Assembly (NCBI GenBank): GCA_025201805.1
Contig: MU619297.1
Location: 1 to 55,298 of the forward strand
Direction of reading: 5' to 3'
Length of the DNA: 55,298 bases
Source of the DNA: Parasitella parasitica NRRL 2501
Taxonomy: Eukaryota; Fungi; Mucoromycota
This document shows positions 26,819-55,229 of this stretch, in pieces. Under the pieces are notes generated by a model that searched no databases, was not told the DNA's origin, and saw nothing but the letters and a program-made list of their open reading frames with translations. Positions within the stretch are counted from its first letter, which is position 1; the number at the start of each line of letters is the position of its first letter. A program made the translations under genes and the position numbers.

Positions 26819-27662
26819 GCTTTTATTTCTGCAACCTGAACAACTTGGAAGTTTAACATATTACTCATGAGGTCTTGAACAAACAACTAATTGTAAAATT
26901 AAGTTTGAAAATGAAAATCCGAAAGTTGACAATGGTGTCTACATTATTCAATGTTGGGTTATTTTAGTAGCATGTTTCATCTCCCTTGATCACAATAAGG
27001 GTAGTTTTTTTTGGCGAGATTTACACTTGGCATCCACCACTGTTCAGGCTGAATTAATGATTTTGTCGTTCGTTTTTCACCTTTAAATACTGACCACATT
27101 TGTACTGTTTAAGAACTCCTATCATATTGGATTTTGTTCCAGGTAAAATCAAAAAACTAAAAAACCATGGATACATTATTCGCAATGCTAATTTGATCAC
27201 CAGCAAGCCTCTGATGAGATTAACGAGGGATCCAATACTCAGAGAATATACTTTGATCTATTCATTGCTTTAGTTGCTTTTTACATCCTTGACGGCATAA
27301 ATCTCCAATTTTAATAACTCAAATTTGGAAATCGAAAAATTGTTTGGAAAGTTTTCATTTTATCTGGTAAAACATAGCCAATTAGAGAGCGTTTAGCTAG
27401 GATGACATAGCAACAAATATTTTAGGGCGTTTTTTCAGTCCTTTTAATTTTGTGTTGTTTTGTTTTTTTGTTCATTCACGACTTTGGTTAAAATACATGG
27501 ATGATCGTTAAGGTATATTTCTTGCGTAATTTGTCAAATTGGTTGTATTTTTATTGATACTGTAAATAACAGGATTTACAACGTAGATATAATAGCTAGG
27601 ATTGGAACCAAAAAGTGCAAAGATAAGTATTTTACAAGATGAACCATGAAGAAAGATCCCTT

Positions 27663-27937
27663 GCCTTCGCAGGTTGTAAGCCTATGGCCGTGTTTCATTT
27701 GGGCCTCTCACTGTACGGGTTGTTTCTTTTTGCTGCCTACCTTCTTGGGGCATATTTTTTATGCCTGGGAGGAATGCACCGGCTTCTTGAACAAGAGATG
27801 TCCCCATTCGCCTTCGCAGGTTGTAAGCCTATGGCCGTGTTTCATTTGGGCCTCTCACTGTACGGGCTGTCTCTTTTTGCTGCCTACCTTCTTGGGGCAT
27901 ATTTTTTATGCCTGGGAGGAATGCAACGGCTTCTTGA
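27663..27937 (+). repeat. Tandem direct repeat, 2 x 128 bp (period 147, 3 differences); candidate structured RNA
   Basis: Copies at 27663-27790 and 27810-27937; differences at 27720/27867, 27724/27871, 27779/27926. Confidence 0.95.
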
Positions 27938-28290
27938 GCGAATGGCTTAACTTCATGATTTCATACTTTTTTTTTTTTTTTTTTGAATCTTACATATTTT
28001 TTTTTAAAAAAAAAAAGAAACTATAGGCCGTCAGTAATTGATGTAAATGTCTGTTAGCCATGAACCAAAAATTGCCCGTTTGCTACATGTGGTAACCGCT
28101 TAGGTGTACCAAGACACTTACCAAATTGAGATCCATGGCCTTGCCTTAATAATTATTACCATTCAAGTATCAAGTCCTTTGCTAACTGCATTCAATATCT
28201 ATAACTGAACAACCATATTATATATCTATCACCGAATCGTAAAAGTATAAATACTCATCAATTTTATCAAATAAGAAATCATGTATACAT

Positions 28291-29658
28291 TACAACAGTT
28301 GCCGAAGCGAAGGTAGAAGAAGTGGTACAGGCTTTCCAGCCACGCTTTATTTTCAGTATATAACTAAGAATCTTGTCTCATAATCCCCTCTTTCTCCAGA
28401 TCTTTCAAGCTATGCTAATAATTCAATTTTTTTTTTTTGGGAGGGAATTGAGACGATAAAGTGAAATAAGATGAGAGAGAAATTAAGAGAGCCATCTCTT
28501 ATACCAGGGTTGGGATTGTACCACTTCTTCTACCTTCGCTTCGGCAACTGTTGTATTGTCTGTTGTGCCTAAGACAATCCTTGTTGCCTTCGCTTCGGTC
28601 TCCGAAGTGATACGATTGTCAGCTTGCGAAAAAATTGAATTCTGAATGATGGTACTAGAGGATTGTTGATACGCAGGTTTGTAGTAGTACTTCTCAAATG
28701 TATTCAAATGAGCGGCCCAGTTAGCATGATCCTTGACTTGGGCAATAGAAATACCCTTTTGAACTGCTTTTGTGCTAGCTGCAGCCCTGATGGAGTGCGG
28801 TTTGTATTCGTTGCTGATGCCTGCCTCGGCCATATGGTAGCTGACCCAGGCGGCCACTGTTGCTGGTTTTATGCTGGATGGTGGACCTTGCTGAGGGTCG
28901 TTGAGGTACGTCAACAATAGAGTATGGTCTTCTGGTAAGGTAGTACGGAAAGGCAGAGATATTTGTAGAAATAGAGACATGCAACGGACCAGACACAACT
29001 CCTCCCCCGGCGTACTAAGTAGACCCAACCTTATACTCTTGTGCTGTGCTTCTTTTGGCTGCCTGATTTGAAGTATGAGGCCAAGCAAAGAGCCATCCTC
29101 CGAGCGGCGCAAGACGGTGTCCCGGAACTGGAGAGTACCAATGTCACTTCGAGGACGCCACATCGTGTGGAGGCAGAGAAGCAATACAAGTTTTTGTTGA
29201 AGGTCGTATAGGGAGAGACGGGAGGAAGGGGGCAAGGCGGTAACAATATAGTTCGCCAGAATGTCTGTATCCCATGTTTCAAGAGTTGCTAAACTGGATA
29301 CTTTGGTGGTCTTTTGTCTCTTCGCCCTGAAGAATGCCATTATGTCCGGGTCTTCAGCCAAAGGAGGGTGATGGGGGTACAGGACGGAGAGTACTGAAGC
29401 AATTGCGGACCTATACCCATTAAGCGTCGACGGTGCCAAGTGAGAGTAACATGTTATAAATTCGAGAACTTGCTTCGTACCATATAAAAAAGGATCAAGC
29501 TTGCGTTCCTTGCACCATTCTTCATATTTGTCCCACCCAAGGTCATACATCTTGTTGGTGGAGTCGCGATTGTAGTGTGCATTAGCTGCAAGATCGACAG
29601 CATCACGTTGGTATTTTAACATTAGACATCCGTTCTTCTCTTTTTCTGTTGTTGTCAC
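28291..29658 (-). mobile_element. DIRS-type tyrosine-recombinase retrotransposon, 3' part (YR ORF, ICR, right terminus)
   Basis: YR ORF plus a perfect 39-bp inverted match between 28291-28329 and 28517-28555, the latter overlapping the end of the YR ORF as DIRS ICRs do. No gag/RT visible. Confidence 0.85.
28483..29658 (-). CDS. Tyrosine recombinase of a DIRS element
   Basis: SAM-like region (STLNGYRSAIASV) and catalytic residues R (MWRPRSD), HxxR (PHSIR), W (ANW), Y (TFEKYYYKP). The extreme N-terminus may not belong to the element. Confidence 0.9.
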   Translation of the reverse strand: MTTTEKEKNGCLMLKYQRDAVDLAANAHYNRDSTNKMYDLGWDKYEEWCKERKLDPFLYGTKQVLEFITCYSHLAPSTLNGYRSAIASVLSVLYPHHPPLAEDPDIMAFFRAKRQKTTKVSSLATLETWDTDILANYIVTALPPSSRLSLYDLQQKLVLLLCLHTMWRPRSDIGTLQFRDTVLRRSEDGSLLGLILQIRQPKEAQHKSIRLGLLSTPGEELCLVRCMSLFLQISLPFRTTLPEDHTLLLTYLNDPQQGPPSSIKPATVAAWVSYHMAEAGISNEYKPHSIRAAASTKAVQKGISIAQVKDHANWAAHLNTFEKYYYKPAYQQSSSTIIQNSIFSQADNRITSETEAKATRIVLGTTDNTTVAEAKVEEVVQSQPWYKRWLS

Positions 29659-29697
29659 TGGAATTAAACAGCGTATTTTTAAGAATTATCGAATAGG

Positions 29698-31184
29698 CAC
29701 ACTTTTAAAAATAATATTTGCACACTTGTAAGAATAGTTTTTGCACACTTTCTTAATTAATTCCACACAGTTTTTAAAAAGACATTACTTGAATGAACTT
29801 TCAGTTNNNNNNNNNNNNNNNNNNNNNNNNNNNNNNNNNNNNNNNNNNNNNNNNNNNNNNNNNNNNNNNNNNNNNNNNNNNNNNNNNNNNNNNNNNNNNN
29901 NNNNNNNNNNNNNNNNNNNNNNNNNNNNNNNNNNNNNNNNNNNNNNNNNNNNNNNNNNNNNNNNNNNNNNNNNNNNNNNNNNNNNNNNNNNNNNNNNNNN
30001 NNNNNNNNNNNNNNNNNNNNNNNNNNNNNNNNNNNNNNNNNNNNNNNNNNNNNNNNNNNNNNNNNNNNNNNNNNNNNNNNNNNNNNNNNNNCATATGACT
30101 GGCTGAAGAAGGATCAGAAAGATATTATGGAAAGAATCAATCCTGATAATCACATTGAAACCGAAAACTTACCACCTAAAAAGAAAGCCGGTCGACCAGT
30201 ATTGTTGGGTGAAGAACATAAGAAGCATTTAGAAGATAACTTTATCGACCATCCTTCGGCAACATTAGATCAAGCAATGGAAAGCCTTACTACCCAATTT
30301 TCTGACTTGAAGGTGTCAAAAACCACTGTTTACAATTTCATGACACAAAACTGCGCCTTGTCATTCAAAAAGGCTCATTTTCATTCACAAGAAAGAAATT
30401 CGCCTGCAAGCATTCAAAGAAAATTTGAATGGGTAGTTCGATGGGCTGAGACCGATATGGATTTTAACAGCAACTGTGTGTTTATCGACGAATCTGCGTT
30501 TCATATCAATTTGAAAAGGGCAATGGCTTGGTCAAAAAAGGGAGCTCGAGCTGAAGTAGTCCAACCTTTAACCAGAGCCAAGACGACAACTATATTGGGA
30601 GCCATTTCCCCCTTCGGTGTCATCAATGTCAAAGTTAGTACCATATGCTGAAGTTTCTAAGAAACGAAAAGTGACAGGAGGTAGTAAGGCTCAGAAGACT
30701 GCTGGAACTTTACTGGGCATTATATGAATTTTATTTCGAGCACCTTAGATGTCATGGATCGTCACGAAGAATTCAAAGGGAATTATCTTATCATGGATAA
30801 TGCCCCTATCCATACATCAGATAGCATCAGAAGATTCATTGAGAGCCGTGGGTACGGATGTGTTTATCTTCCCCCTTATTCGCCTGAGCTCAATCCAATT
30901 GAGCAATTCTGGTTAGTTGTAAAGAGTAAATTAAAAAAGGAAAAGCTCTTGCAGAGCGAAACTCTTAATATGAGAATCGCTGAAGCTTGTCATAATGTTC
31001 TCTTTAGCGACTTGGAAAGATTCTGTCGTTATTCTGCTTTAAAATTTGAAACCTGCTTCAATAAAGAACCTCTATAATATAATTTGCACACAGTGTGCAA
31101 AAAATAAAATAAAAAGCGTGGAGAAAGTAATAAAATATGAGCAATTTTTTCCTCAGCTTGTGCGAATAATTTCTGAAAATAGTG
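29698..31184 (+). mobile_element. Tc1/IS630 DD34E DNA transposon with frameshifted transposase (visible 30092-31077), spanning an assembly gap
   Basis: CVFIDESAF, LIMDNAPIH, LPPYSPELNPIE with 34 residues between D and E. Right end ...TGTGCGAATAATTTCTGAAAATAGTG followed by TA loosely inverts 29698-29730. Boundaries tentative. Confidence 0.85.
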
Positions 31185-49967: not shown

Positions 49968-51184
49968 ATGAAACTCTTTCTCAGAGGCATACTGTTTTTG
50001 GCAGCTTTATTTTATGTGGTATGTTTAGCTACATTGTAAAAGACATGTAAAGAATGTTAATGTATCTACAGGTTCACGCTCAAGACAGCGTAGTCAAGGT
50101 GCTTGAAAACGAGATTAGACAAGAATTAAAACTGGCTGCAGAGGATGCTGAATTAGTACAGGAAAATGCTAGCAGCTGTAAGGAGAAGGGGTCTGACTAT
50201 CTTCAGTATTTGAAGGACTTGGTATCCGATGCCCGCAAAGAAATAAAGAGCAACAACAATCGCAGACCTTCAACCCAATATTCTATCTATGATGTTGCCT
50301 TTTCCGTTGCCCACTACCTTCCATCCTGGGTATTTCCTCGGTCGATCTGGAAAGAGGATCCTGTTACTCGTCGCAGACATATTGCCAAAGTCTTGCGTAC
50401 CTCCCCTCTCGTCACTCGCCCTCGAGCTACTGTCATTCGCGACACTGCCGCACTCTGGACCAAGACATCCTCCCATCTTCTGGAGCAAAACTACACTCTT
50501 TCAACTGAAGAGAATCTCGTCTCTCTTCTTCAGTCTGCCGAAGATTTCGTCACTGCTGCAACTGATCTGGAATTAATGGACTCCTTATTCTTGGCTACTG
50601 GTTATGCAACCCTGGATGACGCCGTTACTCACTTTTTGACCAACAATTTGGAAGAGTTCAATAAGATTACCAATTCAATCAACCATGATTTCAACGAAAT
50701 TGTAAGTTTATCAGGAGATTTGCGTTGTTCGCTGGAGAGTGTTCGTGATGATGCCCTTGAGCAATCCATGATGATCCGCCAAACTTTGTTTTCGGAGCAC
50801 ATTGAAAAGCGTCTTCGTCATCTCAGCTGGCATATTCGTACAGAATTGCAAAATCTGTCTCAAGAACTTCGTGAAGTTCCTGAAGAAGACAAGGATCATT
50901 CAACCAAGTTGTTAAGAAAACACACTGCAGACTCGCTTCGCACAGAGATCGGAACATTGGATGATATAAAGTCGATATTGTGGAAATCCAAATCATTTTA
51001 CAACCATGTTTGGCAGAACGCCCACAATGAGTTGATACAAAGCCCTGTTTCTCTTGATTATTGGATTGATGTGGTTGCCGAGGTAAAGGAAGCTGCCATC
51101 AATCTGGGGAAAACCCTTACCAACAAGCATCAACAAAAGAACCAACATCGCTCGAAATGCACCTGCGGTTATAACAAGAATTAA
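49968..51184 (+). CDS. Hypothetical secreted alpha-helical protein (2 exons)
   Basis: Exon 1 MKLFLRGILFLAALFYV spliced to VHAQDS... gives a signal peptide with a VHA|Q cleavage site; long open exon 2. Confidence 0.7.
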
Positions 51185-52656: not shown

Positions 52657-53557
52657 ACAGCTCATCTCCTTCTCAATTCAAATATCTTACATGTATTACG
52701 TTATTGCAGTTTACTATGTGTATTTTTTCATCATTATAATTACTAAATAGCTTATTTTTGTATATTTCTTTGCACCTATCTTAAAGTGTTGCATTGACGA
52801 TGCTAAATAATATTTTTATCATGATGTACTGGTAATGGCATGTCAAAGGAGTTTGTGTTGCGTTTAAAGCTCGAATAGGTGCATCTTCATTATGCAATGT
52901 ATCTATTCTGAGATAGACAAACAGGGAAAGCTGCAATTCATTTGTGATTGAGCAAATACCATCAAAAGAATTTAAACAATAGCAACTCAAGAGCTTGACA
53001 AAGTCTTCACTTTTCACTCTGACCGAAGAATACTCTTTTTTTTTTTTTTTTTTNNNNNNNNNNTATGAAACGAAGAAAATTCGTCAGTATCACGAGCTTC
53101 TCCTAACAAATGTGTAATCACATTTGCCAGAAAATGCACATAGGATCACAGTAATAATTTAATACCTCATTTTAGCAACTTCTTTAAGATTAGGGTCGTT
53201 CTTAAAGGGTTTATTGAGCATGTTTTCCGCTATAGAAAAATGAGACTTTTGTAGAAGGAACTGATCATGTGAAAGAAAATAATAGTTTATATAATGGTTA
53301 CTTTATTTCATAATAATCCAAACTAGTTATAAAACAGGTTGAAACAGCTTTGGCTATATATATGTTTATAAAAGTATCAAATACCCATCAAACTTTCCGA
53401 AAATGTATATGTGTATACCATTATTGTAATGTATGCAGCATATTTTGAAAGCATCCAAACAAAGTATTTACCAAGTATTTCTCTAGAAAAAAAAATCGTG
53501 AAAAGTTAGAATAAGCCCTCCTTTTGTTATTCCTTGTATTTGAGGAAAAAGACAGCT

Positions 53558-53738
53558 TCCCACTCGTAGCTGGGTGCCTAGTTAAGGACAAACTGCAGCC
53601 ACAAATCTCTCCGGCGTAGGGCAGGGTTCATCTGTGTCATTTTCCCACAATGGCAAGGCACTGCTCCCACTCGTAGCTGGGCGCCTAGTTAAGGACAAGC
53701 TGCAGCCACAAATTTCTCCGGCGTAGGGCAGGGTACAT
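53558..53738 (-). repeat. Tandem direct repeat, 2 x 74 bp (period 107, 4 differences); candidate structured RNA
   Basis: Copies at 53558-53631 and 53665-53738; GC-rich within AT-rich intergenic DNA. Confidence 0.95.
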
Positions 53739-54137
53739 ACGTACTTTACCATTGCGTTTTTCAAATACAAAAAAGTATCAAATCATAAAGCTACATAAAA
53801 AATAGCTTTTCAAGTCATATTTTACAGCATCTTGGCTATTGATTCATACTTATAAAAACGTAAAATAAGGACTTATCTTAAATCATTTGTCTTGTTTTTG
53901 CTGTTAATCAATAAGAATTGCTAGGATTGCACAGCAATAAGATGTTTCTTTTAGAGTAGGAATCAGGACCTGCTGAACAGAGACATACCCTAACATAAAG
54001 ATATTTAGTTTGGTTTAAAGAAAATAGAAGACGAATAAGTCCTTCAGCCCTAGTTTAAGTAAAATTAATGATAACATGTGTGTGAAATATTTTGTCTACT
54101 AGACAATTTTATTTGACGTAGTTGTCTGGTGCACTAG

Positions 54138-55229
54138 TTAGCTTAAAACCGCACGCTCTGATTTTCTAGACCACGAATCCTTCCATTTCATAAACCACTC
54201 GTATCTCTCTTGTAGGTTTTCAGGACTATTGCGTTTCTCAGACTCGAAATGTGGTTTTTTGACTGATAGGTAACACGTTTCGTTCATGTGCTTATGAATA
54301 GCTGATTTTTTAAGCGAAAAATCCTCAAAGGATTTAGTCAAACTTTCAACTACATCACAAACAGTAACCTGTGGATCCTCATCAACGAGGTCCAAGACGT
54401 AGGCTTTGTGTTCCTCTGTAAAGTTGTTTGGGCGTCCTGGATTTTTGGTTGATTTTTTGATCGGCACTTGGCCAATCTCTTCGTAGCTTCTCCGCCATCG
54501 CTGAGCAGTTCGTTCTTCGACACCTAATTCTCTATCTCCCGGCCACAGCGGCATACCTCTGTCCCACAGGTAATTCGATCATACGATCGATGAACGTTGT
54601 CCTCTGATTAATGCTATAGTCTGCAATCATCCCCTTTGAGACAACTTTCACTGGCTTTGAAGTAGTTGACTTTTTGTTTTCAGTTGGTTGTTTTTCCAAT
54701 GGCTTATTCGTCATACAAGAAGAACGATCGACCAATGTTCCAAGAACAATATTGGGATCGTCGATAGTTGACATGACATCTTCCATAGAATCATACGTTA
54801 ATTGACCGTTTTCATTATAAATATTGTTTTGTCCATCTTCATAAAAAAAAGAGTTCTTCATCTCGTAAGGCTACAACAGACCTTATAAGAAAAAGATAAT
54901 CATAAGCTTCCTCAGAAAAACTAAGAAAGGACATTTTATTCCTATGGCAACGAAAACTTATTTCTGATTGGACGACATTTTGTTCCTGTGAGAGCGAAAT
55001 TTAATTCCTGATTGGCCGACACTTTACTTCTATTTATAGGGTACAGGAGACACCCTGAGGACACTTGTTAGAGTCCCACATTTAAAAGACAGCCTGCTTA
55101 AGCTGTTTAATAAATTCACTTATATTGATCATAACTTGAGTTATGAGACGCGCGGGACATTTATTTTGACTTTAAGTGAGGTTTACAACTGTAATTATGT
55201 ATTGGCGGGACACCATAAATGTGAGTGTG
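54138..55229 (-). mobile_element. Truncated Tc1/IS630 element (5' end plus N-terminal transposase)
   Basis: ELGVEERTAQRW...GRPNNFTEEHK...DEDPQVTV...ESLTKSF...KRNSPENLQERYEW resembles the 30127 ORF; frameshifted and stops before the DDE domain. Putative terminus TA|CACACTCACATTTATGGTGTCCCGC at 55229; repeated CTGATTGG.CGACA motifs near 54964 and 55008. Confidence 0.8.

Follow-up and report, generated by a model that had tools for sequence, protein, structure and literature searches.

Within the 55,298 nucleotides of Parasitella parasitica NRRL 2501 analysed here (positions 1 to 55,298 of contig MU619297.1, assembly GCA_025201805.1; hereafter the window), two nearly identical short modules stand side by side, enclosed on the minus strand by stems of different sequence. 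The locus raises the question of whether a structured RNA has been duplicated there and kept by selection, and if so, what such an RNA might do. The DNA of the window is AT-rich and eukaryotic and carries fungal genes; of seven of its proteins looked up, three were present in the protein collection used, and two fall into 90% clusters with Parasitella parasitica proteins. From this background the element at 53531-53773 stands out by its G+C content of 49%, compared with 29% in both flanks. The first-pass annotation of this DNA had interpreted the element as a functional RNA fold that was duplicated and selected, and that interpretation is supported by homologues that exist and covary, by a bias towards G-U pairs on the minus strand, and by a minus-strand exon in a relative. 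None of the outcomes that the same annotation had named as refuting it (a fold no better than shuffled sequence, an absence of homologues, homologues that behave as a DNA transposon) appeared, but the case is weaker than was implied, with the strand undecided by folding z-scores and the window copy no more conserved than its flanks. That selection has kept a minus-strand RNA structure in this family is very probable; the chances that the window copy itself still functions are evenly balanced.

Architecture and predicted fold

The two modules, of 74 nt each, are 95% identical, spaced 107 nt apart, and nested in three stems (Table 1). Every stem that had been proposed from the sequence is present. 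The outer stem consists of 13 pairs, two of them G-U, and the closing stem of domain 1 has 16 positions, including three G-U pairs and one A-C mismatch, exactly as described; the closing stem of domain 2 is also there, but pairs at ten of its eleven positions, the eleventh being a U-U (53639/53550) that had gone unmentioned. Altogether, the 78 stem positions on the minus strand comprise 60 Watson-Crick pairs, 16 G-U pairs, one A-C and one U-U, a G-U count that is biased because the helices are those of a predicted fold, and such prediction favours G-U. The 5' strand of the outer stem is followed by an A-rich junction strand (53760-53757), which recurs in two paralogues, B and C, as read from the loose ends of contigs. 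The conserved core of each module has the same 3' partner, GAGUGGGA, located at 53672-53665 in module 1 and at 53565-53558 in module 2.

Table 1. Features of the two-module element and its immediate surroundings (window coordinates).
Feature	Position	Strand	Evidence or remark
Tc1/IS630-type transposase remnant	54084..54870	-	upstream of the element; HTH_32 and HTH_29 matches, both below curated cut-off
Whole Y-shaped element	53531..53773	-	243 bases; predicted fold
Outer stem, 5' strand	53761..53773	-	predicted fold, pair count
Domain-1 closing stem, 5' strand	53741..53756	-	pair count
Module 1	53665..53738	-	CCC/GGG helix, conserved unpaired core, 11-bp stem, inner hairpin
Family-conserved core, module 1 (ACCCUGCCCUACGCYGGAGARAUU)	53711..53734	-	paralogues B and C each differ at 2 of 32-34 nt
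Domain-1 closing stem, 3' strand	53646..53661	-	different, compensated version in paralogue C (loose ends)
Domain-2 closing stem, 5' strand	53635..53645	-	U-to-A at 53639 in relatives mends the U-U
Module 2	53558..53631	-	95% identical to module 1
Family-conserved core, module 2	53604..53627	-	reads of relatives and paralogues
Domain-2 closing stem, 3' strand	53544..53554	-	pair count
Outer stem, 3' strand	53531..53543	-	A-to-G at 53541 in X18, X19 and X20 gives U-G
GT-AG intron downstream of the element	53201..53301	-	X11 contig skips 101 nt, CT..AC on the plus strand
Decayed 3' fragment of Hus1 (9-1-1 clamp) gene	52784..53200	-	downstream exons; stops in all frames after splicing

The minus strand is folded by RNAfold into a Y shape at -81.5 kcal/mol (z -2.53, with 4 of 200 shuffles as good). 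The plus strand folds equally well, though differently (z -3.17, none of 200 shuffles), so the proposed comparison of both strands with shuffled controls gave a positive result for each and a z-score that picks neither strand; of the 82 pairs on the minus strand, 14 could not form on the plus strand. Shuffling of the three non-repeated segments alone costs approximately 12 kcal/mol on the minus strand (z -3.65, 1 of 300 shuffles as good) and gives z -3.33 with 0 of 300 on the plus strand, and because these segments beat their own shuffles, the closing stems and the frame that they build did not simply follow from the duplication. Taken by themselves, the 70-nt cores do not outdo shuffled sequence (z -0.58 and 0.06).

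Two details of the core that had been proposed earlier call for correction. A GNRA tetraloop, said to be conserved between the modules, is absent from the predicted structure, in which the AUUU after it pairs with CGAGU in the 11-bp stem at probabilities of 0.65-0.97. A GNRA hairpin, if formed, would be closed by just two G-U pairs and one A-U pair. The GAGA version of the loop is private to the window copy, GAAA being present in every other copy aligned over 53607, and the one variable position (U or C) pairs with G in either fold; on the folding model, the GNRA loop is uncertain. The helix GUGGCUG/CAGCUAC, described as invariant, is not so across the family: paralogue B has the compensatory version CUGGCUG/CAGCCGG, which differs by one two-sided and two one-sided changes.

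Two further complementarities were observed within the element. The 7-mer GARAUUY (minus strand, 53716-53710 and 53609-53603) is self-complementary at six of its seven positions in all variants seen, and that of one module could pair with that of the other. The sequence CCUAC (53723-53727) can pair with GUGGG (53670-53666) on the minus strand at a predicted probability of 0.26-0.29, a possible pseudoknot or switch linking two invariant stretches.

Orthologues, paralogues and transcripts

Part of the sequence searched is contained in 20 of 24 listed sequencing runs, of which eight were compared in detail; runs X9, X10 and X13-X17, which have small shares and include some animal gut metagenomes, were left out of the comparison. 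The same locus is found in organisms C, F, G and H and in two environmental RNA libraries at approximately 94-96% identity. These orthologues have at least 18 differences inside the element, eight of them at stem positions, and among the differences listed, seven of the eight still pair on the minus strand and four of the eight on the plus strand. They include a two-sided change from C-G to U-A at 53699/53684, and the U-to-A by which relatives restore pairing in domain 2. One change breaks a pair, at 53546, in a single contig of depth 2, and a difference at 53736 breaks a short helix that had been excluded from the structural model. The relative in run X11 has at least 14 differences in the 243-nt element and at least nine in 229 nt of flank (24 listed); by this sequence comparison, conservation of the window copy does not exceed that of its flanks.

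The paralogues are known only from their differences to the window and from 30-letter loose ends of contigs. A DNA run of the same species (X3), possibly the source of the window, yields seven records that represent the window locus and five other loci at an even depth of 20.7-29.2. Three of these five loci look truncated or deleted: record 13 lacks the first module and has a broken stem pair (53601/53567), record 14 has an internal deletion, and record 17 stops within the first module. Records 13 and 17 share flank that extends past the outer stem. In run X8, a second copy is similar to the window as far as the outer stem, where the similarity ends (records 21 and 24). In run X18, both the orthologue and paralogue B appear with a single module each, the result of either assembly collapse or true loss of the dimer.

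Paralogues B and C retain the core, but their flanks and peripheral stems do not align with those of the window copy, and the 5' ends of all three copies differ, as read from loose ends. Paralogue B has a new inner stem, GAUGAAC/GUUCGUC. Paralogue C, which consists of two X19 contigs that presumably belong to a single gene, has a 30-nt linker in register with that of the window copy (X19 loose ends) and a closing stem beginning with CAUGAUGACAAG/CUUAUCAUUAUG, of which 11 of 12 positions pair; relative to the window copy, the whole closing stem has three two-sided changes, one mismatch and one bulge.

Within each gene, the two modules appear to have been homogenised. In X3, a 94-nt linker contig of paralogue B overlaps the module by exactly 30 letters at either end; under a 31-letter assembly, this implies that the two modules of B are identical between branch points. 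In the window copy, two derived changes that are absent from relatives occur in each of the two modules (53577/53684 and 53586/53693).

Evidence of transcription comes from X11, in which one 725-nt contig spans the element and omits 53201-53301, most of which is covered by the DNA run X12. An X1 contig stops at 53296, five bases into the intron; the lack of cover at 53100-53263 in X1 is not counted as evidence, and X1 and X11 are RNA runs by guess only. The splicing seen in this relative's contig, which reads on the minus strand, places the element in a minus-strand exon; by this sequence evidence, the window copy is in a non-coding, spliced, minus-strand transcript. In X1, contigs of paralogue B have depths of 1,807 and approximately 1,260, against 31 for the window copy (approximately 40-60 fold), whereas their DNA depths are level (21-25 and 25). 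In X18 and X19, which are on record as RNA, there is no excess of B and all copies are level. Contig depth is a poor measure that cannot rank genes, so these values are only a hint that paralogue B is far more expressed than the window copy. A contig of paralogue B reaches at least 168 nt upstream of the core. Long U runs follow two copies on the RNA strand (11 in X3 record 13 and 19 in X18 record 2), and a long T run likewise follows a second, unrelated element of the window described below; the sequences are compatible with possible Pol III termination of some family members.

Candidate functions

Rfam 15 gave no match at gathering threshold in the window, and of seven matches at E values up to 10 in 52800-54500, none overlaps the element. 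A 19-nt core pattern matched nine sequences in JGI metagenomes and 14 in GTDB genomes, but all 23 are attributed to chance, being without the rest of the module and scoring at most 25 bits on a two-sequence model that gives true modules 106 bits. Searches of viral contigs returned zero, one and zero matches, the single match being due to chance, and no blastn match was found among plasmids and phages. The two-sequence model detected no third module in the window. No description of this RNA was found in the literature searched, which did not extend to subscription journals and bioRxiv supplements, and in which the sole motif match, to a kidney-organoid preprint, was unrelated. The sequences fit no known family, and the RNA family is apparently undescribed. 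Long non-coding RNAs of Mucorales have been reported as conserved among Mucor species and Parasitella, one of them as essential, in an article whose main text mentions no secondary structure, ribozyme or duplication (Tahiri et al., bioRxiv 10.1101/2025.10.01.679568); a member of the present family may be among the RNAs listed there.

The best explanation, tentatively preferred, is that this is a small family of two-module structured RNAs of Mucoraceae that act as bivalent binding scaffolds. The three stems would hold two identical modules side by side, and the conserved core of each would bind the same partner, most likely a protein. Two sites could provide avidity or join two subunits, either of a dimeric protein or of two copies of one protein. 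Gene conversion or re-duplication would keep the two modules of each gene alike. The RNA would form part of longer transcripts, at the window locus a spliced Pol II transcript, with paralogue B as the main expressed member and the window copy as a weakly expressed secondary one. What selection would keep is a core of about 17 unpaired bases together with the CCC/GGG helix and a GAGU strand beside a stem of free sequence, all present twice. The working analogy is with Alu dimers and CsrB-type RNAs, which consist of repeated modules that each bind the same protein; unlike these, the element has no sequence or model match, no A-tail, no target-site duplication and a low copy number. The structured RNAs of early-diverging fungi are barely charted, and the design of two matched modules on a three-way frame, with stems rebuilt from gene to gene, is unusual. 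One family member may be abundant, the element is short enough to be tested directly for cleavage, by probing and by pull-down, and the Mucorales are genetically tractable; a catalytic core would make it a new class of ribozyme, and a ligand-binding core a second class of riboswitch in eukaryotes.

Less probably, the modules are self-cleaving ribozymes, whether of a new class or derivatives of the HDV fold, and the pair would process the host transcript; in one version, GARAUUY of one module would be the substrate strand of the other, which would explain the dimer. Small ribozymes usually have a short unpaired core that does not vary, set in a junction beside a peripheral stem that varies freely, as is the case here; copies are dispersed among the debris of mobile elements, and the natural variants of the 7-mer (at R and Y) preserve its self-complementarity. 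The motif order CCC..GCC..CGCYGG, followed by seven bases, a variable P4-like stem and then CGAGUGGGA, bears a loose likeness to that of HDV-like ribozymes. The variable P4 expected before J4/2 corresponds to the peripheral stem, which varies among paralogues with compensation; the element has no E loop. The module end CGAGUGGGA resembles the 3' end of HDV, and a J4/2 spacing like C-R-R-A fits only loosely.

Other features of the HDV-like fold argue against self-cleavage of this kind. There is no 7/7 partner for P1 within 600 nt upstream, the best listed being a 6/7 partner at 53945 or beyond, in AT-rich flank. HDV-like ribozymes require an unpaired conserved catalytic C in J4/2, and the equivalent C-to-G change abolished cleavage, as given in PMC6326823; the would-be catalytic bases at 53673 and 53566 are predicted to be paired (0.88-1.0), and paralogue B has G instead (loose end at 53672). 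The descriptor in the same source has L3 beginning with U and P1.1 formed by CC/GG (PMC6326823), whereas the candidate loops here begin with C, followed by GU or GC rather than GG. No Rfam ribozyme model matched at E values up to 10. In two runs that are probably RNA, contigs cross the element without a break, which is weak evidence. Among fungal HDV-like variants, neither Mucor nor Rhizopus is named in the main text of Li and Breaker 2017 (PMC5640933). It is improbable that the RNA is an obligately dimeric ribozyme of a new class, possibly descended from the HDV fold, in which the Y-shaped frame would position two identical modules for their GARAUUY strands to dock crosswise as substrates and gene conversion would match the modules.

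Likenesses to twister, hairpin, pistol and glmS ribozymes and to the TPP riboswitch were dropped for an unfit order of parts and the lack of an Rfam match. The hammerhead core consists of CUGANGA, GAAA and NUH around three stems; in the element, CAGAUGA occurs only in module 2, with no stem II, G at the H position and no Rfam match. The element shares with retrozymes repeated structured units and dispersed copies, but it is without a hammerhead core, its selected stems close a linear Y, and a unit of 107 nt from module to module would hold two non-pairing strands.

It is unlikely that the locus is a feature of DNA rather than RNA, whether a mobile piece, MITE-like or with hairpin ends, or a tandem duplication that is neutral and situated in junk DNA. 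The dispersal of the copies, some of them broken, the X8 second copy that stops at the outer stem, mobile-element debris as neighbours, the lack of excess conservation over flanks and the equally good fold of the plus strand are all consistent with such an origin. Paralogues B and C, however, have ends that differ from each other and from those of the window copy, so that no terminal inverted repeats are common to all copies, although the one in X8 ends at the outer stem; other copies (records 13 and 17) share flank past that stem; no target-site duplication is visible in the window or in the X8 flanks, and no empty site was seen among the few loci readable. Against a DNA-level origin there are also the 16 G-U pairs against one A-C on the minus strand, the internal two-sided compensation, and the closing stems built from non-repeated sequence. 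In the ends that they do not share, the homologues are unlike a MITE, in agreement with the RNA interpretation of the first-pass annotation.

An origin as tandem aptamers for a small ligand, which by analogy with riboswitches would tune the splicing or stability of the host transcript, is similarly unlikely. The tandem identical modules, the conserved junction core and the position upstream of a splice donor would suit it, and the element has in common with tandem glycine riboswitches two copies of one module in one RNA, and with fungal TPP riboswitches a structured element within a spliced fungal transcript. No Rfam riboswitch model matched, and the modules differ from those systems in being set in nested stems and nearly identical within each gene. 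The donor is 230 nt away, the downstream gene is a pseudogene and the flanks of the paralogues are unrelated, so that no metabolic context common to the copies can be seen. Read on the plus strand, the core sequence CCRGCGUAGGGCAG (53718-53731 and 53611-53624) is close to the 3' end of TPP aptamers; the rest of the TPP fold is absent there, and Rfam gave no match.

Least likely is an antisense guide shown twice, as in a two-hairpin snoRNA, that would pair with one fixed cellular RNA: the unpaired stretch of about 17 nt kept in all paralogues, two hairpin arms within about 240 nt and an ACA near the 3' end (53537-35) speak for it, but both the ACA and the H-box-like ANANNA of an H/ACA snoRNA are inside stems, paralogue B has lost the H-like box (through changes at 53642, 53641 and 53637), and no snoRNA model matches over the element. 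Nor is the element a Fanzor omega-RNA (PpFz1, 75 nt), since the core motifs have no match in four supplementary files, including Table S3, of PMC11423790; the Fanzor family was not found in two upstream open reading frames scanned.

Neighbouring genes and a second two-module element

The window copy is flanked by two decayed genes, a Tc1 remnant and a Hus1 pseudogene. The former has an internal deletion at 54175, read from loose ends of contigs, and splicing of the latter persists in a relative. A 75-nt piece directly upstream of the element (53776-53850) is missing in three relatives (joint in X8, X11 and X12) and is also present on several other X1 contigs, which points to a small recent insertion. 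A tRNA scan of the window found none.

A second two-module element, locus A (27640-27970, the element itself at 27663-27937), consists of 128-nt repeats, 98% identical and spaced 147 apart; its closing stems differ, it has an outer stem, and the long T run follows it. At its start, UGCCUUCGCAGG is similar to the core of the element at 53531-53773, but the two-sequence module model does not match it, alignment of the two elements is not convincing, and nothing credible was found for it in Rfam. Its folding z-scores are only -1.3 and -1.8. The presence of this unrelated element in the same window suggests that the two-module design recurs.

One other open reading frame of the window that resembles tyrosine recombinases (28287-29685, weak Phage_integrase match) has at its 3' end a 43-nt sequence with an inverted copy, 98% identical, 187 nt away, and the two together are likely a Crypton- or DIRS-like element. 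A further Tc1/IS630-type transposase with a weak DDE_3 match is encoded on the plus strand at 29797-31077. The open reading frame at 50054-51184, also on the plus strand, matches Pfam LidA_Long_CC barely over the cut-off (31.3 bits) and probably encodes a generic coiled coil.
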